NCBI GenBank assembly: GCA_050290185.1
Contig: JBNKHE010000010.1
Span: forward strand, 32,001 to 96,000
DNA length: 64,000 nucleotides
DNA from: Pontiella sp.
GTDB lineage: Bacteria; Verrucomicrobiota; Kiritimatiellia; Kiritimatiellales; Pontiellaceae
Reading direction: 5' to 3'
Shown here: positions 41,825 to 60,963 of the stretch, piece after piece
Layout: the number at the start of each line of letters is the position of its first letter
Position numbering within the stretch: position 1 is the first letter of the stretch
Made by a program: the position numbers and the translations under genes
Notes under the pieces: model-generated
Database searches by the model: none
Told to the model about the DNA's origin: nothing
Seen by the model: only the letters and a program-made list of their open reading frames with translations

Positions 41825-41831
41825 TCAAAGT

Positions 41832-42039
41832 TGGTAGCGGGGCTCAGATGGCTACGCCCCTAACTAAAGGGGACTGTCGCTTGCCTCCAGTCTCACTGCG
41901 CATGGCGTTTCGCCACCCTTCGGGTCTTTTGCTTGGGAAAAATCTGCTTCCGCTCGCGAGCTCGCTTCAGGGCTTTGGCCTATGGCCTTGGTCCTGTGGG
42001 CGCTCTCGACTTTGCGAGATGCGTTTGCTGTGAACCGAG
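41832..42039 (-). repeat. tRNA-Met T-arm/acceptor copy interrupted in the T-loop by a 181-nt structured insert
   Basis: Minus strand reads CCTCGGTTCA-[181 nt]-ATCTGAGCCCCGCTACCA; compare CCTCTGTTCAAATCCGAGCCCCGCTACCA in the att fragment. Confidence 0.65.
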
Positions 42040-42083: not shown

Positions 42084-42087
42084 AAAT

Positions 42088-42138
42088 TGGTAGCGGGGCT
42101 CGGATTTGAACAGAGGACCTTCAGGTTATGAGCCTGAC
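42088..42138 (-). repeat. 3' half of a tRNA-Met(CAT) gene (initiator-like); att site, not an intact tRNA
   Basis: Minus strand GTCAGGCTCATAACCTGAAGGTCCTCTGTTCAAATCCGAGCCCCGCTACCA supplies the anticodon arm, T-arm (one stem mismatch) and CCA. There is no D-arm or 5' acceptor strand beyond 42138. Confidence 0.85.
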
Positions 42139-42261
42139 AAAAATTAGCAAAAACGCGTTATAATAAGGCTAAAATAGAAATATAATTGAGTTATCGTTGA
42201 CTTATACTCCCGGAAAGCGCTCTTATTCTGCCCATCAAGGCCAGTGATGGACAATGAGCGA

Positions 42262-43605
42262 ATGGGGGCCACGGTGGCAAAGAAAAAGTCAAAACGACGA
42301 GCCAAGGGGACGGGGGCGGTGGTCAAGCTGTCCAGTGGCACGTATGCCTTCCAATACTCGGACGCCAGCGGCAGGCGCAAAACGCAATCCCTCAAGACCA
42401 AGAATAAAGCCGAGGCCGAAGAACGGGCGGTGGAGCTGGCCCGGATGCTTACGGCTGGCGATACGGCGGAGGCGGTCTTCCAGATTGCCCGCCAGCGCGA
42501 TCTGGTCCATACCAAATGCCTCCCGTTCGGCGAAGTCTGGCCGGAGTTCCTGAAAACCAATCCAACAGCCGGAGCCGGGACCCTTGACCTGTATGAGCGG
42601 GCTTTGAATAAATTCATTGAATGGATGCTTAAAAACCGCCCGGCCATTGCCGACTTTTCCGAGGTCGATGTCCAGACTGCCCGCGCCTACATGGAGGATT
42701 TCTGGTCAACCGGGATTTCCGCGTCCACCTACAATGACCGACGCAATGCCCTCGGCCACATCACCAAGAGGCTGGCCAACCGCTACCACATTGATGTCAA
42801 TCCGTGGGAGCGGACCGAACGGAAGAAAGGGGTGCAGCAAAAACGCCTGCCGTTGAGCCGGGAACAGGTAACGGCCTTGATGAAGAAAATGGACGAGGAG
42901 AAGCTTACCTATCCCGATGAAATGCGGTGTCTGATCCTACTGGGGCTTTATGCCGGAATGCGTTTGGGGGATGCGGTGTTGCTCGAAAAGCAGTGTGTAA
43001 ACATGAAGGCTGGCCGCATTGACTACACCCCCAGCAAGACGGCGAGTACCTCCGGCGTACAGGCACAGGTGCCAATCCTGCCGCCGTTGGCGGAAGCAAT
43101 CAGCGTGTTGCCGAAGCATGAAGGGGACCGCCTCCTGCCGAAGATAGCCGCGCATTACAAGCGAAACCCGGAATACATAAAAGACGCCCTTATCGAACTG
43201 ATCCACAAGGTTACAGGCGATGCCAAGCAGACCACGAAGGCGCAATTCAAACGCTCACGGTCGCTTTATGGCTTCCATAGTTTGCGCCACACATTCGCGT
43301 CCGAGGTCGCTCGATGTGGGGTGTCAGCAACTCACCTGTCGATGTTAACGGGCGACACCATTGCGACGCTGCAAAAGTTCTATGTGAAGATCGGACTGAA
43401 TGAGCCGCATGTGCAGGGCTTTGAAAGTATCGCAAGGCTGCTTGAATCCAAACCTGTCAACGGGGACCGGGAGCGCGAAGAACTGCGGAAGTTGGCCGAC
43501 GACCTGCCCATCGAAAAGGTCCGCGAATTGATCAAGTTGGCGCGGGCCAAGGATGTTAAAGGGGTCGCGACCACCAAGGAATTACAGGAGCAAGGAGCAA
43601 AATGA
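42262..43605 (+). CDS. Tyrosine recombinase/integrase
   Basis: N-terminal arm-binding-like region (AKGTGAVVK...RKTQSLKT), LYAGMRLGD, FHSLRHTFA, KFY. Start uncertain (42244-42274). Confidence 0.9.
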   Translation: MGATVAKKKSKRRAKGTGAVVKLSSGTYAFQYSDASGRRKTQSLKTKNKAEAEERAVELARMLTAGDTAEAVFQIARQRDLVHTKCLPFGEVWPEFLKTNPTAGAGTLDLYERALNKFIEWMLKNRPAIADFSEVDVQTARAYMEDFWSTGISASTYNDRRNALGHITKRLANRYHIDVNPWERTERKKGVQQKRLPLSREQVTALMKKMDEEKLTYPDEMRCLILLGLYAGMRLGDAVLLEKQCVNMKAGRIDYTPSKTASTSGVQAQVPILPPLAEAISVLPKHEGDRLLPKIAAHYKRNPEYIKDALIELIHKVTGDAKQTTKAQFKRSRSLYGFHSLRHTFASEVARCGVSATHLSMLTGDTIATLQKFYVKIGLNEPHVQGFESIARLLESKPVNGDREREELRKLADDLPIEKVRELIKLARAKDVKGVATTKELQEQGAK

Positions 43606-44465
43606 ATAGAATTATCCCGGAAAAACTCCGAGATTTGTCTCAGCTGGGACCATTACTAAGTAATGAGGATACTTCCAGCCAATACATCATTGACCCTGTG
43701 ACACTCGCGAAAGGAATTTGTTATTTCGTTACCCGGTTGCGTATTGTGTCACGCTATGAAGATCTTAGGGAGATGGGGTATAGGAATGGAAATTACTTTC
43801 ACTACATAATTGAATCCTATGAGGAGGTGTTGGCCTGCCTCATGATCCGGTGTGAAAAGGCAGAACGTGAAGAGATAGCCGACCGACTATGTGTTGTCGC
43901 CGGAACCGCTATCGAACTTGATCAAGCGATTTTGAAGTATGGGAAACGCGAGATTTCACATATCGCTATGACTTCAATCGCGAGAGAGAGTGCTGCTGCA
44001 TTTGCGAGTCACAAACAATTCTTTGCAGCGGTCAGGGATTACTGGGAAAGCGAGGCTGCGACTAGGGCGAATCAATACGGGATTCAGCACCATGCCGATT
44101 ACGCCACTGATCGTTCGCCTAAAACTCCACAAGAGCGGGTTCATTTATTGGTTGAAAGCGTCATCGGTAAGGAAGAAAGGCTGATGGCCCTCAATCAGGC
44201 GTTACTCGCCATGCATGAGGTCGCTGATAAACGGGATCATCAAATGGACAACGAGGTCGTGTGTTCGATCTTGGGGATCTCGGAGAACAAAAGAAAAGCT
44301 ACTGAGGAGCGGCTTCGGAAGAGGTTAGGTACGTGGCGGGGTCGTGACACGAACGAGGACGATCAAAAAGCACGAGCTGACATTTTTCGCCGGGGTATTG
44401 GTTTGGAATTACGCAGGACGGTCCGCGAAATTGATCCAAAAATCTTCTGTCATTATAAGCTCTGA
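43602..44465 (+). CDS. Hypothetical helical protein, possible C-terminal HTH
   Basis: 287-aa ORF coupled to the integrase (ATGA overlap, RBS AGGAG); NEVVCSILGISENKRKATEERLRKRL. Confidence 0.6.
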   Translation: MNRIIPEKLRDLSQLGPLLSNEDTSSQYIIDPVTLAKGICYFVTRLRIVSRYEDLREMGYRNGNYFHYIIESYEEVLACLMIRCEKAEREEIADRLCVVAGTAIELDQAILKYGKREISHIAMTSIARESAAAFASHKQFFAAVRDYWESEAATRANQYGIQHHADYATDRSPKTPQERVHLLVESVIGKEERLMALNQALLAMHEVADKRDHQMDNEVVCSILGISENKRKATEERLRKRLGTWRGRDTNEDDQKARADIFRRGIGLELRRTVREIDPKIFCHYKL

Positions 44466-44469
44466 GACC

Positions 44470-44596
44470 TTCCACGCACCGTGGAAGGGCTGATTTACAC
44501 CGTGGAAATATATGGCGCGAAAACTCCATTTAAATCAATGTTTTCAGGCATTGGGCACTACCGGCCTTCATAGCCTCCTTTCCACGCACCGTGGAA
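44470..44596. promoter_or_regulatory. Two perfect copies of the palindrome TTCCACG-CAC-CGTGGAA plus a half copy
   Basis: Full copies at 44470..44486 and 44580..44596; partial CACCGTGGAA at about 44498..44507. Confidence 0.7.
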
Positions 44597-44699
44597 TAAA
44601 AACAATATTCGGATTTTTCTGATTCTAATCCGATCACCAGCCGGATTGGTGTTGCAAATTGACCTGCGACGGTCCGGCTGGGTGAAAGGAAGGATCAGA

Positions 44700-45047
44700 A
44701 TGGAATCAGTAATATCCAAAGCAACAGTTGAACTGGTTGCTAACCTTACCGGCCCTTTGGTTGGAACGGGCGCATTGCATCGAACAGAACAACAATCCGT
44801 TGTTCAACTTCTCCGGCAGCATACCGCCGGGAAACAGCCGGATCAGCAAGCCGATGCTTGGTCGACGCTGGACGAGGCTTCGCGGGAGACCAAACTCAGC
44901 AAGAAGACTCTGCGCCGTATGATCGATTCGGGGGAATTGGAGGGGAAATATTTGCGCAAGGGATCACCGAAAACTTTGCGGATCAAGTCTTCCTCCCTTG
45001 CGGCCTTGAAAGCCCAGGAAGGAGATCCGAGTCATGAAGCAAAATAA
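44700..45047 (+). CDS. Excisionase-like HTH DNA-binding protein
   Basis: WSTLDEASRETKLSKKTLRRMIDSGELEG...LRI; ATG at 44700 after AAGGAAGGA. Confidence 0.75.
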   Translation: MESVISKATVELVANLTGPLVGTGALHRTEQQSVVQLLRQHTAGKQPDQQADAWSTLDEASRETKLSKKTLRRMIDSGELEGKYLRKGSPKTLRIKSSSLAALKAQEGDPSHEAK

Positions 45048-45480
45048 TGATATTCAAAACGATGCAGGGAATGTTGACGTACAGATCCAGTCGCAGCTAA
45101 ATGTCGGGGGTGTGCATGCACCAAAGAATAGCAATGATGATCCTGGCCGTAAAATATGTAGGTCGTGCGGAAAGTTCGAGGTGGGAAAAAGCTCGCGCTT
45201 CCTGAACTGTTTAAGTCTTCATGGTTTATGCGATCTGTGTATAGGCGAAGTCACAAGTCTGAAAGTAGGCATGTATGAAGCGTCAGACCGTTTTGTTAGC
45301 TTATGGAAAAACACGGAACTGCAAGTTACTGCCGAAGAGATATTGTCGGTCTTCGACGGTATGGCTGCACTTTCCGGGCCGGCATTAGGCGATGTTTTTC
45401 GCGGGCTTAGGCAACTTCTGTCTGCGATCGGTAAGGAGGCACAAGAAAGGGGGGGGTGGGCTGATGACTACCCGTTCTGA
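45034..45480 (+). CDS. Hypothetical protein with two CxxC pairs
   Basis: CRSC...CDLC; RBS AAGGAG; overlaps the upstream gene. Confidence 0.55.
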   Translation: MKQNNDIQNDAGNVDVQIQSQLNVGGVHAPKNSNDDPGRKICRSCGKFEVGKSSRFLNCLSLHGLCDLCIGEVTSLKVGMYEASDRFVSLWKNTELQVTAEEILSVFDGMAALSGPALGDVFRGLRQLLSAIGKEAQERGGWADDYPF

Positions 45481-45742
45481 TCGCGTTTCGATAAACGGAC
45501 TTATAGGGCATTCCAGTTTTGTCGAAATATCTCTCTGCGAGGAGTGCGCAGTAGCAAAGGACCAATGGTGCAAAACTTGTGATGACTCCCCTCTGGAGCT
45601 ATGTAGTTTGTGCCAGGGCAAGGTTAATGCCATACCCCAAGGATCGTACATATTGGTCGACCAGAATGCGCCAAGACTGTTGTACGACGAGGGCGATGAA
45701 TCGGAGTATGATTGGAAAGCAGCGGGGCCTGACGATGATTAG
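45464..45742 (+). CDS. Small Cys-rich hypothetical protein (three CxxC)
   Basis: CEEC, CKTC, CSLC and an acidic tail; overlaps its neighbours in operon fashion. Confidence 0.5.
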   Translation: MTTRSDRVSINGLIGHSSFVEISLCEECAVAKDQWCKTCDDSPLELCSLCQGKVNAIPQGSYILVDQNAPRLLYDEGDESEYDWKAAGPDDD

Positions 45743-45876
45743 CCTCGATTTCCATGTCGATCCATACACTGATGCGTCGTGTTCAACTATTAACATGGGC
45801 CGAAAGGCCCATTTCTTTTTCTATTCAATCCATGGTTGTTGGGATTGGGCGGATTTTGATTCTGGGGGCGATTGCG

Positions 45877-47040
45877 ATGGCAAAGTCTGCGTATGACTAC
45901 GTGGAGGCCAGCAAGCTAGAGGACTATATTCGTAAGCATTACCGGAACCAGTTGAGCAATGGCGCATTGAGCTTCTATTTAACTGCGCTGCCTTATCTGG
46001 AGCGGAAGGGCCTCGGCCTGTGTGCACCCATCACGGCGACCTATCAGGATCTGGTTAAGGCGGGATTTCGGAGTAAATCCAACATAAAGACGGTCCTTAA
46101 CGCTTTGAATGGCGTGCTCTGCGAGGTTGTTATCGGGCTCCCGATTGCCGGGGAAAGCGGCAAGGAGGCCACGCGGATAAGGCGATACACACTGAAGGAG
46201 CTGAAGAACGGGGAAACCGCTCGTCGCCTTATCGACTATCGCCCAGCCGATGCGAGGATGTTGGCTGGACTTCTGGCGAGTCGATCATTCGTCTATGGCG
46301 ATGATGCTGCCTGTAGCCCCGCTTTCAATGTCTTGCTAACCGGTCGGGTCCAGTCATCGAGGCCGAATGTTCAGGGTGATCCAGAATCGGTGCGTATACG
46401 AAACCTCTGCGCTGGTCTGGAACCGGGACAGGTGTTGATTTCTGCCGACTACAAGGCAGCAGAGCCGACGCTGATTCAGCATGCCATGGACTTCCGGTTC
46501 GATGTGGCTGATCCGTACCAAAAAGCCGCTGACCTGCTTGGAATTGATCGAGACAGTGCAAAGCAGCAGGTCAATAGGTTGGCCTATAGTTCCGACAGTG
46601 TGGCGACGCTGTGGCGGTAGGAATGCCCGCAGGCGGAAGAACACTTCCTTCCATATGCGGAAGCCCTCACCGAGTATAAGGAAAAGCTTTTCGTGACAGG
46701 GAAACCTCGCACCGGGATGCGCCGGTTTGTCAGCACGTTGGCAGGTCGGAAGATCGACGCGCAGCGGGGCGATGCTCCACACCGGGGCAGGATTCTATCG
46801 TGGCAAATCCAGGGTACGGTGGCCGACATCCTCAACGCCGTATGCCTGAAGATCGTGGGTCTGGAAGCGGAAACAAGGTGGCGTCTGCTGTTACCGGTGC
46901 ACGACGCGGTGTATGTTGCGGGTATTCCCGAAGATGCCGATAAGATCCGGAAACTCATGGAGGCAGAAGCAAAGGCTCTGCGGCTGCCACTTAAGGTTAC
47001 GGTCGATACCTACCGGAAGGGGGACCATGTTCGCAAATAA
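45877..47040 (+). pseudogene. Minimal family-A DNA polymerase-like gene (387 codons) interrupted by one in-frame TAG at 46618..46620
   Basis: ORFs 45754..46620 and 46693..47040 are in the same frame. Motifs: TGRVQSSRPNVQ, ADYKAAEP (A), RDSAKQQVNRLAY (B), QIQGTVADI, LLPVHDAV (C). Confidence 0.8.
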
Positions 47041-47582
47041 GAACAGGCCAAACCGCCCTCTACTGTTCTTAGATACGAACCCTTATACCAGTCATAGGGA
47101 ATATTTCACCGTGTCTCCGTCTCCCTTCTCCCCGAATGCTATACGGGAGGCCCAGAAAGAGTCGGCCTGCGCCTTTTTCAGGTTGAGAGTAGGTTGGGTG
47201 CGTTTCGGGAGCCTCAGCGAGTATACGCCCTTGATATGCGCTTTTACGATCTTCGGTGCTATTCAGCTTAGTAAGTGCTAACCTTTTGGCTTAACGTGAC
47301 ATAAATACATTATGAGTGGGTTACTATGCTGCCCGGATATACAAGCGGGTGTTTTGGCTTCCTACCTTTTCATTAGGCCAAGAGTCGGTCGTGGAGTAGG
47401 TGCTAAGGGACTTTTAATCGATTTTTGGACGATTTCATTCACCTACGTTTTTTACGGATTATGGCGGTTCGTTAGTAAAAAATACTATCCATCCAGTTCA
47501 TATCTTGCCAAGGGTTCTGCTTGCTGAAAGACCTCTTCGGAACTACTTTTGACGCGAATATATCATCGAATGGATTTAAGGT

Positions 47583-50500
47583 ATGGGGATACGCGGAGAT
47601 AAGGGGCAGAGTAGCAACTTCCGTTTTTTGGAAGAACACGATGCTGTCTTTCTCCAATTGGTCACCACTGCCGAACAGGTTTTCTCCTCCGACCCCAATA
47701 CTACACTGATTAAACTCAGGCAACTGGGTGAGGCATTGGCCCAGAATATAGCTGCCCGTTGCGGTATCTCTTTTGATGAGCAGACCAGCCAGTCGGACCT
47801 TCTTTACAAACTGAACCGTGAAATCTCACTTGATCCGGAGATTCGCGAGCTGTTCCATACGCTCCGGATCGAAGGCAACAGGGCAACCCACCAATTCCAA
47901 ACCCGCCATGGGGAGGCCATGAATGGCCTCAAGATTGCCCGGACGCTGGCCATTTGGTTCCATCAATCCTTCGGTGCCAACGGAACGCATTTTAAGCCCG
48001 GTCCATTTTGTCCGCCGCAGGATCCTAGTATGCCTCTACGGGAACTGCGGGAACAGATCGAGCAACTCAAAGCCAAGCTCCATGACGCCAATCAGGAAAT
48101 CGAGTCCAGCCACGAACTGGCAGAGCTCGTTGCTCGCGAAAAGGCTGAGTACGAGACTCTTGCCGAAAAAATGGATGAGGATGCCCGTACCTACGAGGCA
48201 ATCGCTCTCGAGAACGAAGCAAAGTTGGCAACCATGCAAGCCGACTATGAGCAGAAACTCGTCGACATGCAGAAACAGTTGGATGCCCAGGCTGCCAAGA
48301 GAGTTTCCGAGAAAACCCATAAAGCGGCCAAGCATGTCGATTTGAACGAAGAGCTGACCCGCATCATCATTGACCAGCAGTTGATTGCTGCTGGATGGGA
48401 AGCCGACACGCAGGAGCTCACCTATGCCAAAGGTGCTCGCCCTGAGCCTCGGAAGAACAAGGCCATTGCCGAATGGCCCACCGTTGGACGCCAGTCTGCC
48501 GACTATGTACTGTTCGCGGGGATGACTCCGATCGCGGTCGTTGAGGCGAAACGGGAAAATACCGATGTGGCCGGAAAGATTCCTCAGGCTGAACGCTATT
48601 CCAGCGGATTCCCGCTTGCGGCCGATCATTACGCCGCATGGCGGCTTGCCGGTGAGCAGCAGGCATGGAGCGATGGGGAAGGCGGTACCTACAAAATTCC
48701 CTTTGTCTATTCATGCAATGGCCGCCCCTTTATCAAACAACTGTCGGAAAAATCAGGTACCTGGTTCAGGGATGTCCGCGCGCCTTCCAATCTGAAAAAA
48801 GTACTCAGCGATTTCCACTCACCGGAAGGTCTGCTGGATCAGCTTTCCCGCGACAAAGCGGCGGCCGAAGCCAAGCTAAGGCAGGAAGGCTTTGAATACC
48901 TCAAACTGCGCGACTATCAGGAAAAGGCGATCAACGCGGTTGAAAGCGCGTTGGAGAAGGATCAACGCGAATGCCTGTTGGCCATGGCCACCGGCACCGG
49001 CAAAACCCGCACCATCATCGGACTGATGTATCGCTTTCTTAAAGCCGAACGTTTTAAGCGGATCCTGTTCCTAGTGGATCGCAGCGCGTTGGGAGAGCAG
49101 GCGCAGGACGTGTTCGATGAAGCCCCGCTGGAACAAAACTCCCCGCTCTCCAAAATCTACAACATCGCCCAGCTTGGCGACATGGCCGCAGAAGCCGAAA
49201 CGCGCATTCAGGTCGCCACCGTGCAGGCTATGGTCAAACGGATCTTCATGTCGGACAACCCTCCCTCCATCGATACCTATGACTGCGTCATTGTCGACGA
49301 GGCCCACCGTGGCTATACCCTCGATCAGGAAATGACCGACAACGAAATCCAATTTCGGGATCAGGCGCAATATCTATCCAGCTATCGCCGGGTGCTTGAC
49401 TGGTTCGATGCGGTCAAAATCGGAATGACCGCGACTCCTGCCAGGCACACCTCCGAGATATTCGGCAAGCCGGTCTATACCTACACCTATCGCGAAGCCG
49501 TTGCTGACGACTGGCTCATCGACCACGAACCGCCCATCCGCTACCGCACCAGACTGGCGGAAGAGGGCATCCGGTTTGAAAAAGGCGAAAAGGTCGAGGT
49601 GGTGAACGTCAGATCCGGCGAGGTGGACGAAGCGGAACTGGAAGACGATCTCGACTTTGAAGTCGAAGCGTTCAATCGGCGTGTCATTACCAAGGATTTC
49701 AACCGGGTGATCTGCGAAGCGCTGGCGGAGGAGCTGGATCCCTTCAGCGATGAAAAGGTCATGATCTTCTGTGTAACCGACCTGCATGCCGATATGGTCA
49801 AAACAGAGCTGGATAGGCAATTTGCAGCACTCTACGGCGATGACTACAACCAGAACGCGGTGCGCAAGATTACCGGAAAGAGCGATCAGGTTGACAAACT
49901 GATCCGGCACTACAAGAACGAGCGCAATCCTGTCATCGCCATTACCGTCGATCTCCTCACCACCGGAATCGATGTGCCCAGCATCTGCCATCTCGTATTC
50001 CTGCGCCGTGTCCGTTCCCGCATTCTCTATGAACAGATGGTCGGGCGCGCCACCCGCCGGTGCGACAAAATCGGAAAAACCGAATTTAAGATTTACGACC
50101 CGGTAGATCTCTATGCCGCGCTCGACGAAGTCTCCACCATGAAGCCCCTGGTGAAGAACCCGAACATTCCATTGGAACAGTTGGTCGATGAACTGCTTCA
50201 GCCCGAACATCACGCCTTGGCCGATAATCGCGAAAGGAGCCATGCCGACGAAGTGCTCGACGCCATCAATCAGAAGGTGATGCGGATTCTACGAAAGGCC
50301 CGCAAAAAGGCGGAACGCGACGGACGGGTGCGCGATAAACTCGACGAGTTGGAGGATCTATGGGGCGTTGAACCCTCAACACTGCACAGGCACTTCCATG
50401 AAATCGGACCGGAAAAGGCGGCGGAGTTTCTGACAACCCATTCCGGGTTTATCCAACAGATGGAAGATGTGAAAGTGTTGGTCGGCTCGGATAACAATCC

Positions 50501-51065
50501 CGTTATTTCCTACCACGAAGACGAACTGATTGGCCGCGAACAAAACTATGGCGTGCATCAGCGCCCTGGCGACTATCTTCAGGAGTTCGCGGAATTTGTG
50601 AAAGGCCACGTCAACGACAACGCCGCACTCTCCGCCGTTGTCAACCGCCCGAAGGATCTCACGCGCGAGCAACTCAAAGAGGTGAAACTCTATCTCGACC
50701 AGAACGGCTTCTCCGAAGCCAACCTGAAAAGCGCATGGCGCGGCCAGACCAACCAGGAAATCGCCGCCAGCATCATTGGCTATATTCGTCAGGCCGCCCT
50801 CGGCGAAGCGCTCATTCCCTTCGACCGGCGGGTTGAGATGGCCATGGGGAAGATATACAAAATGCGGAGCTGGACCACCATCCAGCGCAAATGGCTCGAC
50901 CGCCTCGCCAAGCAGCTGTGCCATGAAGTGGTGATCGACCAGCAGGCCGTGAATGAAATCTTTGCTAACGACGGCGGGGCAAACCGGCTGAACACCATCC
51001 TGCATAAACAGCTTGAATCCGTTCTCGAAACCCTCGCCGAATCGCTTTGGAATGAGGCCGTATAG
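47583..51065 (+). CDS. hsdR: Type I restriction endonuclease subunit R, EcoKI-like
   Basis: ADYVLF...VVEAKR nuclease motif, MATGTGKT, IVDEAHRG, MTATP, LLTTGID, QMVGRATR. Confidence 0.95.
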   Translation: MGIRGDKGQSSNFRFLEEHDAVFLQLVTTAEQVFSSDPNTTLIKLRQLGEALAQNIAARCGISFDEQTSQSDLLYKLNREISLDPEIRELFHTLRIEGNRATHQFQTRHGEAMNGLKIARTLAIWFHQSFGANGTHFKPGPFCPPQDPSMPLRELREQIEQLKAKLHDANQEIESSHELAELVAREKAEYETLAEKMDEDARTYEAIALENEAKLATMQADYEQKLVDMQKQLDAQAAKRVSEKTHKAAKHVDLNEELTRIIIDQQLIAAGWEADTQELTYAKGARPEPRKNKAIAEWPTVGRQSADYVLFAGMTPIAVVEAKRENTDVAGKIPQAERYSSGFPLAADHYAAWRLAGEQQAWSDGEGGTYKIPFVYSCNGRPFIKQLSEKSGTWFRDVRAPSNLKKVLSDFHSPEGLLDQLSRDKAAAEAKLRQEGFEYLKLRDYQEKAINAVESALEKDQRECLLAMATGTGKTRTIIGLMYRFLKAERFKRILFLVDRSALGEQAQDVFDEAPLEQNSPLSKIYNIAQLGDMAAEAETRIQVATVQAMVKRIFMSDNPPSIDTYDCVIVDEAHRGYTLDQEMTDNEIQFRDQAQYLSSYRRVLDWFDAVKIGMTATPARHTSEIFGKPVYTYTYREAVADDWLIDHEPPIRYRTRLAEEGIRFEKGEKVEVVNVRSGEVDEAELEDDLDFEVEAFNRRVITKDFNRVICEALAEELDPFSDEKVMIFCVTDLHADMVKTELDRQFAALYGDDYNQNAVRKITGKSDQVDKLIRHYKNERNPVIAITVDLLTTGIDVPSICHLVFLRRVRSRILYEQMVGRATRRCDKIGKTEFKIYDPVDLYAALDEVSTMKPLVKNPNIPLEQLVDELLQPEHHALADNRERSHADEVLDAINQKVMRILRKARKKAERDGRVRDKLDELEDLWGVEPSTLHRHFHEIGPEKAAEFLTTHSGFIQQMEDVKVLVGSDNNPVISYHEDELIGREQNYGVHQRPGDYLQEFAEFVKGHVNDNAALSAVVNRPKDLTREQLKEVKLYLDQNGFSEANLKSAWRGQTNQEIAASIIGYIRQAALGEALIPFDRRVEMAMGKIYKMRSWTTIQRKWLDRLAKQLCHEVVIDQQAVNEIFANDGGANRLNTILHKQLESVLETLAESLWNEAV

Positions 51066-51144
51066 TTTATTATAGTGAGCTCAATCCATATGTTGGTGGA
51101 GATCTTTCGCTGTATGCGGCGAGCCTATGAATAGGAGATGTTAA

Positions 51145-52263
51145 ATGACTGCAGTAAAGTACCATATAGGGAAGTTTCCGCCTCAAGTACTGAATCTGGA
51201 ACGACTTCTCCCCCTTATTGGTCCGGCCAGTTCCGCTGTAGCCCGTTATGACGGCGTGCTTTCCGCCATCCCCAATGCTTCGGTTCTATTGAGCCCTTTA
51301 ACCACGCAGGAAGCCGTACTTTCATCCAAAATCGAAGGCACGCAGGCGACCATGGGTGAGGTACTCGAATTTGAGGCCGAAGGTGGCCGAAAAAAAGTCC
51401 CGGAAGAGAAGCGCGAGGACATTCATGAAGTGCTGAATTACCGTAAGGCCATGCGTCACGCGGAAAAGCGATTGCAGGAACTGCCGCTTTGCCAGCGGGT
51501 CCTCAAGGAGGTCCATCGGATCCTGTTGGACGGAGTGAGAGGCCAGGGTAAGTCGCCGGGAGAATACCGGAGGATTCCAAACTGGATCGGCCCCTACGGC
51601 TGCTCCATGGAGGACGCACGCTTTATCCCGATCCCCGCTGGTGAACTGGATGAGGCGATGGGGAAATGGGACATATACATTAATGCGTCTGCTCCGGACC
51701 GCTTGCTCCAGCTCGCAATTCTTCATGCGGAATTCGAGTCGCTGCACCCTTTTCTAGACGGTAATGGTCGTCTTGGCCGAATGTGTATTCCGCTCTTCAT
51801 GCATCAGGTCGGATTGATTCAGCGTCCGATGTTCTACATCAGTGCCTATTTTGAAGCCAACAGGGATGAATATTATGATCGGTTGCTGGCCATATCCCAA
51901 GCAGACGATTGGACCGGATGGTGCATGTTTTTCCTTCAGGCGGTCCGTATTCAGGCAGAACAAAACCTTAAAAAAGCCAATGCGGTACTGGATCTCTACA
52001 ACCGGATGAAGCTGAAAATCGCGGATATTTCACATTCCCAGTTTTCGATTCATGCGCTGGAGTGGATTTTTGAACAGCCCATTTTCAACAGCACCGATTT
52101 CATTAAGGCCTCGGGGATCCCCAAGCCCACCGCCACCCGGATTTTGCGTGTTTTGAGGGAAGAGAGCATTCTTCAGGTCTGGCAGGAGTCCCGCGGTAGC
52201 AAACCGGCGGTATACGGATATGCTGATTTGCTGAACGTGGCGGAGGGGTATCAGGCGTTCTAA
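51145..52263 (+). CDS. Fic-family protein with C-terminal HTH
   Basis: HPFLDGNGRLGR canonical Fic motif; SSKIEG inhibitory-helix-like motif. Confidence 0.92.
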   Translation: MTAVKYHIGKFPPQVLNLERLLPLIGPASSAVARYDGVLSAIPNASVLLSPLTTQEAVLSSKIEGTQATMGEVLEFEAEGGRKKVPEEKREDIHEVLNYRKAMRHAEKRLQELPLCQRVLKEVHRILLDGVRGQGKSPGEYRRIPNWIGPYGCSMEDARFIPIPAGELDEAMGKWDIYINASAPDRLLQLAILHAEFESLHPFLDGNGRLGRMCIPLFMHQVGLIQRPMFYISAYFEANRDEYYDRLLAISQADDWTGWCMFFLQAVRIQAEQNLKKANAVLDLYNRMKLKIADISHSQFSIHALEWIFEQPIFNSTDFIKASGIPKPTATRILRVLREESILQVWQESRGSKPAVYGYADLLNVAEGYQAF

Positions 52264-52333
52264 TGGGTACAAGATATAGTGTCAGGCATCGTCTGAACTA
52301 CATAAAAACCGCTTCTTATGGTGGTTTTAACGG

Positions 52334-52428
52334 TTGTGGCTCACGGATGATTCACAAACTAATTTGTGGATCAAAAAAGCTAAAAAATGATTCGCAATCG
52401 AATTTGTGGCTCACGGATGATTCACAAA
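52334..52428. repeat. 25-bp direct repeat with internal dyad
   Basis: TTGTGGCTCACGGATGATTCACAAA at 52334..52358 and 52404..52428, with a degenerate third unit between them. Confidence 0.75.
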
Positions 52429-52642
52429 TTACCCGTCCGTTTGCTTGCATACACTCCTGCAATCAAAACTGGAATAATCATAAATATCTTGTATTCAGTA
52501 TGTTATGCGCTAAGTTGCTTGCATCTGAGTGTAGTTTATTCGGCAAGTGCACAAAGCGGGATTTCCTTCCCTCTGAGGTTACCTCTTCGCTGCTGTCGCT
52601 TCGTGTCTCTGTGCCCTCTATGGTGAAAATTTCTGTTTCCCC

Positions 52643-52703
52643 AAACTTCAAACCTCAAACTTCAACCCGTTTTCTTAAAACCTAACACCTAAAACTTAAA
52701 ACC
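52643..52703 (+). repeat. Degenerate 7-nt tandem repeats just upstream of hsdM
   Basis: AAACTTC AAACCTC AAACTTC, then TAAAACC TAACACC TAAAACT TAAAACC. Confidence 0.6.
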
Positions 52704-52713
52704 GGATTTTCCT

Positions 52714-54357
52714 ATGACCAAAAACGACATTGTCCAAAAGCTCTGGAACCTGTGCGACATCCTGCGCGATGACGGCATCAACTATTCCCACTATGTCACC
52801 GAGCTAGTCCTGCTGCTCTTCATGAAAATGGAGAACGAACAGGTGCTCAACCTCAACAACTTTGACCATCGTCTACCCGAAGGGTGCCGTTGGGCCGATC
52901 TCAAGAAAAAGAGTGGCCTTAACCTGCTCAACGACTATAAGCGCATTCTGCTGACGCTCTCCACCGGCAAGGATGCCGACGGCAACACCGTCGTCACCGA
53001 TCCGCTGATCCTTGCCATCTACAACGATGCCCAGACCAGCCTGCGCGAACCGCGCCACCTCGAACAGCTCATCAAGAGCCTGGATCAGATCGACTGGTTT
53101 TCCGCCCAGCAGGATGGGCTCGGCGATCTCTACGAAGGGTTGCTGGAAAAGAATGCCAACGAAACCAAGTCCGGTGCCGGACAATATTTCACACCCCGCC
53201 CGCTGATCGATTCCATCATCCGCTGCATCAAACCGCAGGCGGGCGAAACCATCCAGGACCCCGCCGCCGGAACGGCGGGCTTCCTGATTGCCGCCGACCG
53301 CTTCATCAAGGACCAGACCGACGACCTTTACGATTTGCCGCCGAAGGAACAGAAACGCCAGCGCAAGGAGTGCTACATCGGCATCGAGCTGGTGCCCGAC
53401 ACGCGCCGTCTGGCGCTCATGAACTGTCTGCTTCACGGCATGGAAGGCGATGACGAGGGCGTAGTGCATCTGGGTAATGCGTTGGGGCAGGCGGGGGAGG
53501 GACTGAAGCCGAGCACCATTATTCTCAGCAATCCTCCCTTTGGAACCGCCAAAGGCGGCGGACGGCCCACGCGCGCCTTTACCCACGCCACCTCCAATAA
53601 GCAGCTTAACTTTCTGCAGCATATCTACAATGGTCTCAAGCCCGGCGGACGCGCCGCCGTCGTCCTGCCCGACAACGTATTGTTTGAAGCGGGCGTCGGC
53701 ACCGACGTGCGCCGCGACCTGATGGATAAATGCAACCTGCACACCATCCTGCGCCTGCCCACCGGCATCTTCTATGCCCAGGGTGTTAAAACCAACGTCC
53801 TCTTCTTTACCAAAGGCACGAAAAAGAATCCCGATCAGGACGAGGGCTGCACCAACAACGTCTGGGTCTACGACCTGCGCACCAACATGCCCAGCTTCGG
53901 CAAACGCACGCCGTTTGGCGACGCCCATCTCGAACCCTTTGAAAATGTCTATGGCAAAAACGCCGACGGCACCTCCAAGCGCACCGAAGGCGATTGGTCA
54001 TTCACTTCGGATGTTAAACACAATGACACGAAGGACTCGAAGCTTAGTGATCTTAGTGTCTTGAGCGAAGCGGGTGTTGATTTGGATTCGTCCCGCTGGC
54101 GCTGTTTTTCCAGGGATTGGATCCGCGATACCAAGGGCGACTCCCTCGATATTTCCTGGATCAAGGATAGCGACAGCGTAGACGCCGCCAGTCTGCCCGA
54201 TCCCGACACCCTCGCCGCCGAAGCCATGGGCGAACTAACCGAAGCCCTGCGCGAACTCGACGGACTCATGGCAGCCCTCGGCTGCGCCAATGAAGCCGAC
54301 GCCCAGAAAACCATGTTGGCCGAAGTGCTTGGATTGTCTGACGAGGGCGTGGAATGA
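52714..54357 (+). CDS. hsdM: Type I RM N6-adenine methyltransferase subunit M
   Basis: GAGQYFTPR, DPAAGTAGFL, SNPPF, LRLPTGIFYAQGVKTN. Confidence 0.95.
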   Translation: MTKNDIVQKLWNLCDILRDDGINYSHYVTELVLLLFMKMENEQVLNLNNFDHRLPEGCRWADLKKKSGLNLLNDYKRILLTLSTGKDADGNTVVTDPLILAIYNDAQTSLREPRHLEQLIKSLDQIDWFSAQQDGLGDLYEGLLEKNANETKSGAGQYFTPRPLIDSIIRCIKPQAGETIQDPAAGTAGFLIAADRFIKDQTDDLYDLPPKEQKRQRKECYIGIELVPDTRRLALMNCLLHGMEGDDEGVVHLGNALGQAGEGLKPSTIILSNPPFGTAKGGGRPTRAFTHATSNKQLNFLQHIYNGLKPGGRAAVVLPDNVLFEAGVGTDVRRDLMDKCNLHTILRLPTGIFYAQGVKTNVLFFTKGTKKNPDQDEGCTNNVWVYDLRTNMPSFGKRTPFGDAHLEPFENVYGKNADGTSKRTEGDWSFTSDVKHNDTKDSKLSDLSVLSEAGVDLDSSRWRCFSRDWIRDTKGDSLDISWIKDSDSVDAASLPDPDTLAAEAMGELTEALRELDGLMAALGCANEADAQKTMLAEVLGLSDEGVE

Positions 54358-55754
54358 GTGAAATCTGTATTCCAGATGAATGGATTTTTTGTGCAGTCGG
54401 CGAGCTGGGTGAGATTGTAACAGGGAAAACCCCAAGTACAAAAGACAAGGCAAACTTTGGGGGCGAAATACCGTTTCTAAAGCCAGGCGATCTGGATGCA
54501 GGAGGTAACATAGCCTCTACTCAGGATACTTTGAGTGAAAAGGGTTTAGCGTTGGTGCCGTCATTGCCCAAACATTCGATAGCAGTAACATGTATTGGAA
54601 ATTTAGGGAAAGTAGGCATTACGACAAGAGAATCAGCCTCCAATCAGCAGATTAATTCTATTCTTCCTAGTCCGCATGTTAGCCACAAATTCTTGTATCA
54701 CTATATGACTTCAATGAAGTGGTGGCTAGAGCAAGAAGCCTCAGCAACCACCGTTGCTATAATCAATAAAGGAAAGTTCTCAAAAGCACCTGTAAAATTA
54801 CCTCCCCTCGCAGAGCAGAAAGAGATTGCGGCGCGGCTGGATGATTTACTGGCGCAGGTGGCCTCCATCAAAACCCGCCTCGACGGCCTCCCCGCCATCC
54901 TAAAACGCTTCCGCCAATCCACCCTCGCCGCCGCCGTCTCCGGAAAACTCACTGAGGAGTGGAGGGGAACTCCGGCAATAGAAACAAATCAATCTCCTGT
55001 AACTATTGGGCAGGAAAATAATCAAACTCCCAAAGGTTGGGACTGGAAGAAGCTTTTGGATTTGGCGGACCTTGAATCTGGACATACGCCTAGAAAGTCA
55101 GTCTCTGAATACTGGGAGGGTGGTGACGTATATTGGATCTGTCTTCAGGATATTCGTGCTGCTCATGGTACGACGATTGTCGACACGAAGCATAAACCGA
55201 CCATGCTGGGGATTGAAAACTCAAGTGCCCGCTTATTGCCTAAAGGAACGGTCTGTTTCTCTCGCGATATTTCCGTTGGTTTTACGACGATTATGGGTCA
55301 CGAGATGTCAACTACGCAACATTTTGCGAACTGGATTTGTGGAGAAGAGCTTTTCAATGAGTATCTTATGCTCGCACTTATGGCAGCCAAAGATCATCTG
55401 ACGATTTCTGGGCAGGGGACGACTGTTAAGACCATATACATGCCTGCATTAAAAGAGTTCAGGTTGCTCACCCCTCCGGAAAAAGAACAAACTGAAATCG
55501 TCCGACGGGTGGAAGAACTGTTTGCGTTTGCGGATCAGGTAGAACAGCGGGTGAAGGATGCGCAGGCGCACGTCAACCATCTGACGCAATCCATCCTCGC
55601 CAAAGCCTTCCGCGGCGAACTCACCGCCGACTGGCGCGCCGCCCATACCGACCTCATCACCGGCGAAAACTCCGCTGCAGCCCTCCTAGAACGCATCAAA
55701 TCCGAACGCGCCAAGCTGAACCCGAAAAAACGAACGCTAAAATCTAAATATTAG
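54354..55754 (+). CDS. hsdS: Type I RM specificity subunit S
   Basis: Two AT-richer TRDs separated by conserved helices: LPPLAEQKEIA...AVSGKLT and PPEKEQTEIV...SILAKAFRGELT. Confidence 0.93.
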   Translation: MSEICIPDEWIFCAVGELGEIVTGKTPSTKDKANFGGEIPFLKPGDLDAGGNIASTQDTLSEKGLALVPSLPKHSIAVTCIGNLGKVGITTRESASNQQINSILPSPHVSHKFLYHYMTSMKWWLEQEASATTVAIINKGKFSKAPVKLPPLAEQKEIAARLDDLLAQVASIKTRLDGLPAILKRFRQSTLAAAVSGKLTEEWRGTPAIETNQSPVTIGQENNQTPKGWDWKKLLDLADLESGHTPRKSVSEYWEGGDVYWICLQDIRAAHGTTIVDTKHKPTMLGIENSSARLLPKGTVCFSRDISVGFTTIMGHEMSTTQHFANWICGEELFNEYLMLALMAAKDHLTISGQGTTVKTIYMPALKEFRLLTPPEKEQTEIVRRVEELFAFADQVEQRVKDAQAHVNHLTQSILAKAFRGELTADWRAAHTDLITGENSAAALLERIKSERAKLNPKKRTLKSKY

Positions 55755-55778: not shown

Positions 55779-56516
55779 ATGACTGATGGAGATGTGCAGG
55801 TAAGGCTTAACCAAGTCTCAAAGCAGCGTTGGTCTGTTGATCTGGTAAAGGAAGTATACGGGGTGGATCTGAGCGAGAAATCGTCCCTAGTAGTACAGTT
55901 TAAACTGTGGGCTGGCAGGTATGACAAGGACTTGACGGTAATCGGTGACGATGTTGATCGTTGGATGTTTCAATTGTTTCTGCAAGATCGGGAGTGGGTT
56001 CCCTCTACGATTGCCGCACCTCAGTTAGGTCTTAAAAAGGACGATTTCGAGAACGTCTTGGGCAAGATGAAAGAGAAGTCCTTCATCTCGGAGGTCGAAC
56101 ATGGTGGTTTGTTCCCTAGTGTTTATTCTAAAAACTTCATAAATGATTTGCCCGAACGACTGCCCTCATTCCCTCGTCAAATTTGGGCTTCGCGATCCAG
56201 TCATGTACGGGCCTTCCATACGGCTCTCGAAAAGGATCTTGGTTTTGAGGTTTCACTGCTGCTTTGTTCTGCCTCTATCCGTTTTGGAGACCCAGATCCT
56301 GAAGTTTCTATCGAGCAAGACATTATCACCAACGAACCTATTGGGCTTAAGTATCAGGACTGGATGAATTTTGGGCAGCCAATAGCATTAAAGCCTGATG
56401 CATGCTCAATCTTTACGTTGGCACAGCATGCTGAGGTTTTGGCTCATTACAGAATGAGTAAAGGGAAAGATGAGCTGTTGGAAAGAGCTAGCGAAGTGAT
56501 CGGACAAGGGAAGTAA
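55779..56516 (+). CDS. Hypothetical protein (245 aa)
   Basis: ORF with RBS AAAGGA directly after hsdS; no family recognised. Confidence 0.65.
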   Translation: MTDGDVQVRLNQVSKQRWSVDLVKEVYGVDLSEKSSLVVQFKLWAGRYDKDLTVIGDDVDRWMFQLFLQDREWVPSTIAAPQLGLKKDDFENVLGKMKEKSFISEVEHGGLFPSVYSKNFINDLPERLPSFPRQIWASRSSHVRAFHTALEKDLGFEVSLLLCSASIRFGDPDPEVSIEQDIITNEPIGLKYQDWMNFGQPIALKPDACSIFTLAQHAEVLAHYRMSKGKDELLERASEVIGQGK

Positions 56517-57262
56517 TGATGTTCATTTCTTCGGGGGCGAACAATTTAATAAGCAGCATGAATATCGGGAACCGACCCGATGGAACGCACTATGTTCCTC
56601 TTGTATGTGGGAAGAAAATCAAGGAAGGCATGCGCATTGGTGATGAAGCGCTGCGCGAGTGGTTTTTAAGGTGTGTATCGTCAGGCTCATATTCTGATTT
56701 TTGTATTGAAGATAACATAGCAGTGCTTGGCATCAAAAAGTGGGATAAATCAGGGCTAAAATATCTCAACTTACAAGCCCTTGTAACCCTTCGAGGAACG
56801 ATAGCCGATATGTGCCGTTCAGGAGAAAATAACAACGAATGGAATGATAAATGTCACTATTATCGGTTGGAATATGATCCATCAAAACCGGGCCCTATCT
56901 TCAAAGAACCTCTTCCGCATGTACACGTCTACCCAGGTGGTGCCCCTCGATTCCAATTCTCTGGTTGTGATCCTAAGACGCTGTTCGTAGATTTTATTGA
57001 GTTTTTGTATCTCAACTATGCTCACTCCAAGTGGGTAGGCTGGGCTCGTAGAATTTGGAAGCAAGGGACGGATTTTTCGCCATGCGAAGATTCGTTTGAT
57101 GCAGTTGTTGCTGCATATGATGGCGGGCGTAGTAGTGAGTTGATGGGGCGGTACAAAGGTTCAGTAATTGATCTGAAAATGGTGCTGAAAAAAGAAAAGC
57201 ACAGGCTTTCGGCTGGGCATGCCATGCTTTCGGATACAGCAGATACCCTTTCGTATAGGTGA
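56516..57262 (+). CDS. Hypothetical protein (248 aa) with a YYRLEYD...PLPHVH motif
   Basis: TAATG overlap with the upstream ORF; the motif loosely resembles DUF2290-type proteins. Confidence 0.65.
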   Translation: MMFISSGANNLISSMNIGNRPDGTHYVPLVCGKKIKEGMRIGDEALREWFLRCVSSGSYSDFCIEDNIAVLGIKKWDKSGLKYLNLQALVTLRGTIADMCRSGENNNEWNDKCHYYRLEYDPSKPGPIFKEPLPHVHVYPGGAPRFQFSGCDPKTLFVDFIEFLYLNYAHSKWVGWARRIWKQGTDFSPCEDSFDAVVAAYDGGRSSELMGRYKGSVIDLKMVLKKEKHRLSAGHAMLSDTADTLSYR

Positions 57263-57327
57263 TGTCGATAGCAGCAACGCACTCAAAAGTGCTAATGGAT
57301 GACGAAGCGGCCAAAAGGAAATGGCTT

Positions 57328-57519
57328 ATGTTTCTAGGGATAGAAAAAGATAAGGGATTGTTTTACGAGGGCGGTGATCTGTTCACGGGGATGCGCGCCG
57401 TATTACCACCGCCACATCTTTTCGATATGCAGATACTCGGTGCCGCATTATTGGAGCGCATCAAAACCGCCTGATCCAACCTGAAACCGAAAAAGAAGCC
57501 CCGGAAGGGAAAGGGATAA
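57328..57519 (+). pseudogene. Junction remnant: 5' end of the 58698 gene joined to an hsdS 3' tail
   Basis: 57329..57434 repeats 58699..58804. 57442..57519 reads AALLERIKTA*SNLKPKKKPRKGKG*, against HsdS AALLERIKSERAKLNPKKR. Confidence 0.8.
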
Positions 57520-57520
57520 C

Positions 57521-58687
57521 ATGGGCCAGCAGAGTGAAATGATGATTGAGGCCATGGATCAATGGTGGGGAGCTTCAGGAAAATTTGTCTGCGAAAATTG
57601 CTTAACCGCGTCATCGCTTCAGAAAGCCATTCGAGAAAATATTGTGCCGGACCACAACTGTTCTTTCTGTGAAAATGACCGTGCGGCATCACTCGATTAT
57701 CTGATGGAACATCACATCATGCCTGCAATCTGGAATGAATATACGGAGGCGGTCAATGAGCTCAATTGGGTTGACGGGGAGTGGCTTGGAGAGTATCAGG
57801 ACACGTATGATTTGATCGAAGATGTCATCGGCGGATATGACGGAACGGATTTTGGGGATTTGACCGAAACCATTCGTGATTCAATCCGTGATACCCATTG
57901 GTGTCGTCAAAACTATTATGGCGTTCAACCTGAAGAAACACGTTTGTTTCGATGGCGCGGGTTTGCTCACATTGTTAAGCACACGACCCGCTATTTCTTT
58001 GGGGATACCATTATTGAAAAAGAACCATCCGAGCAGGATGAAACCGATATTCTTGGATTTTTGAATGATCTAAAAGAGATTATTGAACGTGAACTACTCT
58101 GGAATATGCGCCCGAAGACGGTCATTTTTCGGGCTCGGGTTGATAAAACGAAGCATACCTCTATTCAGGAGCTTGGAGCGCCACCCTATCATAAAGCTTG
58201 TTATTCAAACCGTATGACTCCCGCAGGGATTTCAATGCTCTATGGGGCCTTAGATGCGCAAACTGCCAAGGCAGAGGTCGGTGAGCTTAAGTCCGATAAA
58301 ATAATGACTCTAGCATCTATACGCCTCATTCCTGAAATTCAAGTAGTGGACTTTACTCGATTACCCCCACCGCCGGACTTCTTCGATTTGGACAAGAGTT
58401 CTCGCCGCTATCTCTGTCAGTTTTTATGGAGTTTTGTTAAAGAGCTTGCCGCTCCAATTGAAAAGGATGGTCGAGAACATATTCAGTACGTCCCGACACA
58501 GGTGCTTACCGAGTATCTAAAAACCACGTTATTAGTTAATGGCATGATTTTCCCAAGCTCACGGTATGCGGGTGGAAAATGTGTTGTTCTGTGGAGTAAA
58601 GATTTTGTACCGAATAGGAGTGGTAATTCTTCAGGATTAGAATTGGTAGATGCTGAGTATTATGGCTTGGACTTGATTAAAGTCTGA
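57521..58687 (+). CDS. RES-domain protein with N-terminal Cys-containing (HEPN/RES-NTD-like) region
   Basis: FVCENC...CSFC; IFRAR, NRMTPAGISMLYGA...AE, YVPTQVLTEY, FPSSR. Confidence 0.85.
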   Translation: MGQQSEMMIEAMDQWWGASGKFVCENCLTASSLQKAIRENIVPDHNCSFCENDRAASLDYLMEHHIMPAIWNEYTEAVNELNWVDGEWLGEYQDTYDLIEDVIGGYDGTDFGDLTETIRDSIRDTHWCRQNYYGVQPEETRLFRWRGFAHIVKHTTRYFFGDTIIEKEPSEQDETDILGFLNDLKEIIERELLWNMRPKTVIFRARVDKTKHTSIQELGAPPYHKACYSNRMTPAGISMLYGALDAQTAKAEVGELKSDKIMTLASIRLIPEIQVVDFTRLPPPPDFFDLDKSSRRYLCQFLWSFVKELAAPIEKDGREHIQYVPTQVLTEYLKTTLLVNGMIFPSSRYAGGKCVVLWSKDFVPNRSGNSSGLELVDAEYYGLDLIKV

Positions 58688-58697
58688 TGGAGGTTCA

Positions 58698-60910: not shown

Positions 60911-60963
60911 TCTAGGAGCAAGGAACTGTAAGTTCATGCCAACATTATATTGGATAAGCTATC

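Follow-up and report, generated by a model that had tools for sequence, protein, structure and literature searches.

The window analysed here, a stretch of 64,000 nt from a Pontiella sp. genome (G000:C10:32001-96000, C10 and C9 being contigs of the same genome G000), carries an island integrated at a tRNA-Met(CAT) gene. Among the genes of this island is one related to family A DNA polymerases (PolA), which belongs to a family of proteins of about 385 aa, hereafter designated mini-PolA, in which a winged helix is fused to a PolA core devoid of a thumb. The product of this gene is very probably the replication initiator of the islands, and we give slightly better than an even chance to an origin-binding initiator that makes its own short DNA primer for host polymerases. 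A stricter formulation is more tentative, with chances a little short of even: a helicase-free, single-chain initiator-primase of PolA fold, in which the winged helix would replace thumb and exonuclease and recognise a repeat pair specific to each element, and which would prime DNA at a conserved site without a partner protein that binds single-stranded DNA (an SSB).

A PolA core fused to a winged helix

The window gene comprises 387 codons (45877..47040, plus strand), and its translation, a winged helix followed by thumbless PolA palm and fingers, matches DNA_pol_A (PF00476, E 2e-12). The initial annotation had recognised motifs A, B and C with both catalytic Asp, a helix-turn-helix-like N-terminus, the lack of an exonuclease and little room for a thumb, and each of these features proved real. 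In an alignment of 69 members, which are 344-495 aa long (median 386), the Asp of motif A, the Lys of motif B and the Asp of motif C are invariant (69/69 each), the steric-gate Glu occurs in 63 with Asp in the other six, and the motif B Arg and Tyr are each found in 62. Four positions after the motif B Lys, Asn is present in 45/69, and the motif C Asp is followed by Ser, Ala, Gly or Cys in 67/69. These positions are named after their roles in Klenow.

An AlphaFold2 model was made from an intact homologue, 65% identical to the window protein (predicted local distance difference test, pLDDT, 94.7). From about residue 147 onward, the protein is collinear with Taq, Bst and Klenow, from the TGR hairpin to motif C, and matches their profile at E 1e-17 over profile positions 149-376. 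Structure comparison gave Z scores of 20.0 with the apicoplast polymerase (apPol) and 19.3 with Klenow (root-mean-square deviation 3.7-3.8), with lower values for single-subunit RNA polymerases (13.1 and 11.5) and 7.5 at most for family B chains. The Klenow alignment includes only 262 residues over chain positions 514-928, and the winged helix is separated from the TGR motif by only about 45 residues, modelled as two helices and a hairpin; in this model there is no room for a thumb or an exonuclease. Motifs and the predicted palm and fingers fold place the protein in the family A DNA polymerase superfamily, with thumb and 3'-5' exonuclease missing. When modelled alone (pLDDT 83.1), the N-terminal domain resembles the winged helices of TFIIE/TFE (Z 7-8), DnaB (7.1), a RepA_N-type plasmid initiator (6.8) and ORC/Cdc6 (about 6), and a separate profile search returned FadR (E 0.002) and Crp regulators (range E 0.002-0.03).

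Database searches recovered 62 matches, 55 of which, 35-65% identical to the query, span at least 96% of its length, and 59 clusters (50%-identity representatives) were collected at E<=1e-30, full-length PolAs beginning only at E~1e-8. The best homologues are same-length proteins and not full-length phage PolAs, which would have refuted the initial annotation by its own account. Of 50,697 GenBank phage records, 271 matched and none covers 80% of the query, so that a fragment of a longer protein or of a phage PolA, already at odds with the full-coverage matches and same-length homologues, was ruled out. No longer protein with this N-terminus occurred among 1334 candidates, which is weak evidence. 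No family member was found by an IMG/VR pattern scan or among the 72,556 plasmids of PLSDB, NCBIfam and PHROGs returned nothing for the polymerase beyond weak generic PolA matches, and an ESM Atlas search with the intact homologue gave best scores of 0.80-0.83, which are leads only. Members are present in 16/401 genomes of a class sample, in 6/401 of a phylum sample and in 2/351 genomes from the phylum of a Planctomycetota genome; close relatives in the same order are labelled Kiritimatiellales/Kiritimatiellota. The family is apparently absent from published descriptions: none was found in the open-access literature, a coverage that leaves out most subscription journals, and neither a thumbless nor a winged-helix group is mentioned in the available parts of two surveys of PolA (PMC10201439, PMC12926913), although their supplements, like those of PMC2579912, may list members unremarked.

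The window copy itself is, judging from its sequence, an inactive nonsense pseudogene. The 387-codon reading frame is real but interrupted by an in-frame TAG at codon 248 (46618-46620), at which the initial annotation had merely hinted, and G000 is alone among the 16 genomes with a match in having an internal stop. Recoding was ruled out, since TAG is an ordinary stop in this host, where it ends 256/699 long frames, and the corresponding residue is Trp in 55/56 homologues. An assembly error was also rejected, no other letter being found at this position in the contigs of three runs from one study, possibly the assembly's own source.

In the nearest proteins outside the family, a CHC2 zinc finger and a TOPRIM domain precede the same thumbless PolA module. 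At least 49 such CHC2-TOPRIM-PolA fusions were identified at E<=1e-25 (P0185, P0205, P0156, P0200 and P0210-P0254). Their PolA catalytic residues are conserved, and in fusions of at least 540 aa the TOPRIM acidic motifs EGxxD and DxDxxG are found in 27/27 and 26/27, respectively; Asn occupies the fourth position after the motif B Lys in 49/49 fusions, versus 45/69 in the winged-helix family. An unrooted tree was built from 64 catalytic domains, comprising 23 winged-helix (every third alignment row), 13 TOPRIM-fused and 28 full-length proteins. Each of these three groups forms one side of a starred branch, and the branch marked 100/96 separates the winged-helix and TOPRIM-fused proteins from the 28 full-length PolAs, a grouping that may reflect long-branch attraction. 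No published description of the TOPRIM-fused family was found in the open-access literature, and its genomic context was not found in IMG/VR or in 351 genomes searched with one protein.

Islands, replication slot and candidate origin

The genomic context of mini-PolA was scanned with Pfam on 218 heuristically called open reading frames (ORFs) of at least 70 aa from 27 loci. The recurrence of homologues of about 390 aa beside integrase and xis genes, to which the initial annotation had looked, is found here: of the 25 loci whose flanks are long enough, 21 have an integrase gene no more than 7 kb away and one of the remaining four encodes a serine resolvase, and recurring neighbours are the integrase, an HTH_17/AlpA protein, small Cys-rich ORFs and a Zn-ribbon gene overlapping the polymerase start. 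Six islands of 6.5-9.4 kb are bounded by attachment (att) sites at tRNA-Arg (two), -Gln, -Thr, -Glu and -Leu. Two loci have attP-type junctions that fit excised circles: the contig of L014, 6,173 bp long and circularly permuted, has a single att core flanked by element sequence on either side, and L047 starts with an element-end/att junction. No primase, replicative helicase, relaxase or capsid and no D5/primase-C match was detected among the 218 ORFs; RNase H was found in two of the 27 loci, ParB in two and an AAA protein in one, together with varied defence cargo. Large terminase (TerL) genes occur in two mini-PolA loci (L040 and L049) and a small terminase (TerS) gene in L081 and in the next island on C10; no packaging gene was detected by Pfam in the six bounded islands. 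Integrase, xis/AlpA, replication module and att at a tRNA gene are features of satellites resembling phage-inducible chromosomal islands (PICI), and the best explanation for the island is a small tRNA-integrated, satellite-like element.

Several details of these loci can be added. The two RNase H genes lie within mini-PolA islands (L009:11898-12299 and L068:6483-7337). In two Planctomycetota-like loci (L024:2561-4024 and L027:3464-4933), an ORF combining a ParB N-terminal domain with a PHROG 'DNA topoisomerase'-like domain is found directly upstream of the polymerase. On the circular contig, short repeats form a dense array in the non-coding part (L014:1-560), and the att is flanked on both sides by GTGGCTTAAGGTGG repeats that look like integrase arm sites.

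The Zn-ribbon protein has a conserved CxxC..CxxC..RKGKP pattern, and its gene overlaps the start of the initiator by 17-44 nt (L004:9493-10017, L014:4157-4372, L022:9529-10017 and relatives); long forms have an extra N-terminal domain, SpoVG-like as a lead only (score 0.78). When this gene was sought in 401 class genomes, 34 were positive with 38 matches, from which 30 loci were fetched and 29 were readable. The gene downstream, which overlaps it, encodes mini-PolA in nine loci, a primase-type protein in seven and an O-like winged-helix initiator in seven, and is unassigned in six. The primase-type occupants comprise three proteins with PHROG primase matches (E 1e-9 to 6e-12), a 45%-identical relative with no match, one prim-pol (E 1e-34) and two BT4734-like proteins, and no helicase domain was found in these seven. 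An IstB/DnaC-like ATPase (loader) follows two of the seven O-like initiators, and a DnaB helicase follows one unassigned gene. Mini-PolA has no profile similarity with the slot occupants of archaeo-eukaryotic primase (AEP) type (probability 0.3%), and L051 contains two tandem islands, one with each enzyme type. As judged from gene order, the position after the Zn-ribbon gene is plainly a replication-initiation slot.

Within one island family, interchangeable replication genes of at least five kinds occupy a single slot (L071-L100), and the six occupants with no family match (L081, L086, L087, L091, L095 and L098) are candidate new initiators. An ERCC4-domain nuclease gene often follows the slot, whatever the type of initiator (L005, L011, L018, L049, L075, L080, L083, L092, L095 and L098).

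At the 3' end of the window gene, two 18-nt imperfect palindromes with a 36-nt period (47028-47045 and 47064-47081) are followed by CCCTTATACCAG (47080-47091), an arrangement that makes this region (47028..47091, plus strand) a candidate origin. Repeats were scored in 50 loci, after three duplicates and one short locus had been dropped and with near-duplicates remaining. A pair of 16-nt repeats with at least 14/16 identity was found at or just after the stop codon in 35/50 loci, as compared with 0.8% of shuffles and 3/20 other-slot loci. The period is 34-37 in 21 loci, 42-47 in 13 and 60 in one, and each repeat is an imperfect palindrome whose sequence varies between clades. The pair with a TATACCA-like tail, a motif defined in this same sample, occurs in 35/50 loci versus 1/20 controls and 3/100 shuffles, and in 3/5 loci that had not been used before. 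In at least five loci, and in one new locus as well, the motif runs opposite to the gene, and its occurrence in both orientations speaks against its being a terminator or a site where the transcript of the gene serves as primer. Paired palindromes and TATACCA motif together form the candidate origin.

Possible modes of action and related systems

In the scheme that we favour, xis and integrase would excise the island as a circle, and the winged helix would bind the pair of element-specific repeats located where its own gene ends, probably as a dimer since the sites are palindromic. The tethered thumbless PolA domain would then make a short de novo DNA primer at the adjacent, conserved TATACCA(G/C) and pass it on to the polymerases and helicase of the host, in the manner of ColE2 Rep with its AEP domain. 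Binding of the motif, its identity with the origin, de novo priming, a DNA rather than RNA product and the hand-off to the host are the steps that we infer.

A number of observations weigh against this scheme. Seven slot occupants are non-catalytic O-like initiators, so that slot equivalence points to initiation and not to priming, and the Zn-ribbon query was built from mini-PolA loci, so that nine of 29 overstates the mini-PolA share. The Z values of the winged helix are in the common-fold range and thus give its fold, not its function. In the TOPRIM fusions, whose primase motifs are intact, the thumbless module more likely extends primers. The motif is missing from 15/50 loci, near-duplicates are present among the 50 and the tail motif was counted where it had been defined; the window repeat pair is weak, its 12/16 identity being reached by 3/40 shuffles. 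The window element has no Zn-ribbon gene, as the 53-aa ORF that sits in its place (45735..45896, plus strand, 20-nt overlap with the polymerase start) is outside the Zn-ribbon family and G000 gave no match to the Zn-ribbon alignment. Downstream of the polymerase, no recurring partner gene was found in relatives, nor was an SSB partner like MP recognised as a constant neighbour. Finally, tandem copies or assembly effects could yield the junctions of L014 and L047.

The alternative that survives best, possible though rather unlikely, is an origin-tethered extender: the winged helix would mark and open the origin, as an O-type initiator does, DnaG from the host or a helper would prime, and the thumbless PolA would add only the first deoxynucleotides as a primer hand-off. 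This idea stays alive since the module, being fused to an intact DnaG-like primase in the sister family, can act downstream of a true primase; the two families also share the Asn at motif B Lys+4 and one side of the 100/96 branch, the steric-gate Glu is kept, and O-like initiators are found in the same slot. However, Pfam detects no primase, loader or helicase in the bounded islands, and the other nameable enzymatic occupants of the slot are all primases. The fixed short motif beside the repeats resembles a priming site, and host Pol I would make a mere extender redundant.

A non-replicative role is improbable, such as a site-specific synthase of small RNA or DNA for regulation, defence signalling or gap filling upon excision. 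It would suit the absence of the third acidic residue of motif C (Ser/Ala/Gly/Cys in 67/69) and the unusual motif B+4 residue, which we take to be features of single-subunit RNA polymerases, as well as the RNase H genes in two loci and the defence cargo nearby. Yet the modelled structure is nearer to DNA than to RNA polymerases, the steric-gate Glu is kept, and the gene holds a core-operon position where it swaps with replication initiators, whereas cargo is variable.

More improbable still is a self-sufficient replicase that, like a pipolin polymerase, would prime and copy the whole island. Mini-PolA is the only replication-type gene of the islands, with invariant catalytic residues, and integration at tRNA genes and restriction-modification cargo add to the likeness. 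The initial annotation had proposed a PolA-based pipolin analogue, from which a replication role and origin binding can be retained in view of slot displacement and the cis motif; copying of the element by this enzyme alone is not supported, given that thumb and exonuclease are both missing and that it swaps with primases and initiators, not with replicases. The islands reach 28 kb, and the drop in Pol I processivity upon thumb truncation, as given in the available part of PMC10061031, was counted against this alternative. A decayed phage or cellular PolA fragment is scarcely tenable, being refuted for the family by dozens of homologues of equal length, intact and sharing the N-terminal domain, with identities as low as 26%, by an internal stop confined to G000 and by the lack of a phage record covering 80% of the query, and true only insofar as the window copy, with its nonsense codon, is a pseudogene.

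Mini-PolA can be compared with several known systems, as far as the available parts of the cited papers describe them. The CcPol-MP/PolA-SSB primases of SCCmec-like elements likewise have a truncated PolA, which takes the position of a primase on an integrated element, and a repeat-bearing origin downstream of the operon (PMC7581432, PMC10061031). CcPol-MP is thereby a precedent for the favoured scheme, as a PolA whose priming takes place at an origin situated downstream of the operon that encodes it (PMC7581432). The CcPol thumb is shortened, and the SCCmec origin repeat TACCACTTAAT has TACCA in common with the motif found here, a resemblance only. These systems, known from Bacillota, retain a thumb together with all or some of the 3'-5' exonuclease, depend on an OB-fold SSB partner, the gene of which lies between those of the polymerase and the helicase, and are always adjacent to a D5/DUF927 origin-recognising helicase, whereas mini-PolA has a fused winged helix and no thumb, and neither a helicase nor a constant SSB was recognised beside it. 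TV-Pol is likewise a minimal PolA-related enzyme devoid of nucleases, found on integrase-bearing mobile elements, and its priming was predicted from the non-homologous displacement of prim-pols (PMC2579912). Its minimal domain includes the coiled coil of the thumb and is accompanied by fused or adjacent D5 helicases or by an all-helical N-terminal domain (PMC2579912), in contrast to mini-PolA with no thumb, no helicase and an alpha/beta winged helix; TV-Pol and CcPol were set apart by their published descriptions.

ColE2 Rep and AEP-PriCT-HTH proteins of the RepE/RepS/PrimHYQ type combine HTH origin binding and a nucleotidyl-transferase in one protein with no helicase (PMC4538821, PMC5862659). 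ColE2 Rep, an origin-binding protein, synthesises the short primer that Pol I uses, a helicase being dispensable (PMC4538821, PMC5862659), and AEP-type proteins of this general build fill the same slot in sister islands. Mini-PolA differs from ColE2 Rep in having a PolA instead of an AEP fold, a reversed domain order, no PriCT, a predicted DNA instead of RNA primer, and an integrated island instead of a plasmid as its carrier. By analogy, the best reading is that mini-PolA would work like ColE2 Rep rather than like a pipolin. Pipolins have in common with these islands integration at tRNA genes, a single hallmark polymerase gene and restriction-modification cargo (PMC5695915). In contrast, the thumbless family A core found here (PF00476; family B Z <=7.5) is unlikely to be processive. 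The pipolin enzyme, piPolB, is a full-size, proofreading family B replicase. PICIs follow the order int, regulator, xis/AlpA, small ORFs, replication gene, origin and cargo. This order is shared by the islands, some relatives of which have terminase genes, but they differ from PICI-like satellites in that no pri-rep helicase is present, no packaging gene was detected by Pfam in most bounded islands and no helper is known.

The Pontiella island and the meaning of the family

The left border of the island is a 51-nt att core that corresponds to the 3' half of tRNA-Met(CAT) (42088-42138, minus strand; the annotated feature spans 42084..42138). A second att, 98% identical, was found outside the window at G000:C10:102407-102457 (window position ~70,400), so that the island measures 28,374 bp and not the ~5 kb (42088..47040) to which the initial annotation had confined it; the att, integrase, palindromes, xis-like gene and PolA-like gene listed in that annotation are all present (Pfam matches; tRNA-Met att). 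The GC content is 0.494, versus 0.585 in the left flank, and read depth is flat across the island in contigs from three runs of one study, which is uninformative on excision. An intact tRNA-Met(CAT), located on a separate contig (C9:18080-18156), has a T1:T72 mismatch that points to the initiator type. An older 22-nt att remnant (41828..41849, minus strand) matches, together with its flank, the sequence beside this intact tRNA and marks the outer end of a tandem island array. In the scanned ORFs of the whole 28-kb island, Pfam detected no primase, replicative helicase, relaxase or capsid, the type I HsdR being the sole helicase domain; the same absence, reported for the shorter element by the initial annotation, extends to the full island, and the primase-helicase gene elsewhere in the element that it had envisaged was not detected in these ORFs.

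The first genes of the island, all on the plus strand, are a tyrosine integrase of 453 aa (42244..43605, PF00589, E 2.3e-10) and a 287-aa ORF (43602..44465) with no family above chance in Pfam, PHROGs or NCBIfam, a putative regulator from its position alone. Two identical 17-nt imperfect palindromes, TTCCACGCACCGTGGAA, lie upstream of the xis-like gene (44470-44486 and 44580-44596) and, being the only two copies genome-wide, look like probable operators; their role as an origin was rejected, as no comparable 14-nt exact repeat was found upstream of xis in 16 relatives. They are followed by an excisionase/AlpA-like HTH_17 protein (44646..45047, PF12728, E 1.1e-6) and two small Cys-rich ORFs of 148 and 92 aa (45034..45742), neither of which could be assigned to a family. 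Downstream of the polymerase, the cargo identified with Pfam, also on the plus strand, consists of a type I restriction-modification system (HsdR, HsdM, HsdS) with a Fic gene (47583..55754), ORFs of no assigned family with a HEPN/RES protein (55779..59600, the latter at 57521-58687), and an ABC transporter operon with the start of an 891-aa ORF (60011..64000). Three cargo ORFs of 245, 248 and 300 aa (55779-57262 and 58698-59600) have no Pfam or NCBIfam match and, lying among defence genes, are candidate new defence genes; window positions 57259-57474 repeat the start of the ORF at 58698. Beyond the window, the island encodes a sigma-54 activator and a class V aminotransferase, and a 159-aa ORF at its far end looks TerS-like by eye, with no Pfam or PHROGs support.

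A second island follows the first, with integrase, HTH_17 and small terminase genes recognised by Pfam, the tandem array at this single tRNA-Met(CAT) covering G000:C10:102626-108239 and C9:1577-18156. On C10, this second island comprises integrase, xis, an unassigned gene of 375 aa and the small terminase, and further on (G000:C10:109018-122514) very large secreted-type ORFs of 1578 and 2255 aa, the latter resembling an RHS/YD-repeat protein as judged by eye only. The C9 part (C9:1577-18156) carries SNF2, OLD-like, KAP NTPase, methylase, ResIII and Mrr genes.

What keeps DNA polymerases from starting chains has yet to be settled, and a steric block has been proposed, the last thumb helix of Pol I obstructing the initiating triphosphate, according to the available part of PMC10061031. 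A natural thumbless PolA tethered to a defined 64-bp site makes this idea directly testable, a single small protein and an oligonucleotide being sufficient. If our reading is correct, mini-PolA would represent a third structural solution to origin-specific priming, after AEP and TOPRIM, with about the smallest active PolA core (~240 aa), and would be one arm of an undescribed thumbless PolA clade, the other arm of which is fused to DnaG-like primases. Replicon tools for use in these hosts, or a DNA primase acting at a specific site, could follow from it. Proteins now annotated as hypothetical would define a replicon type for the integrated islands of Kiritimatiellia and Planctomycetota.

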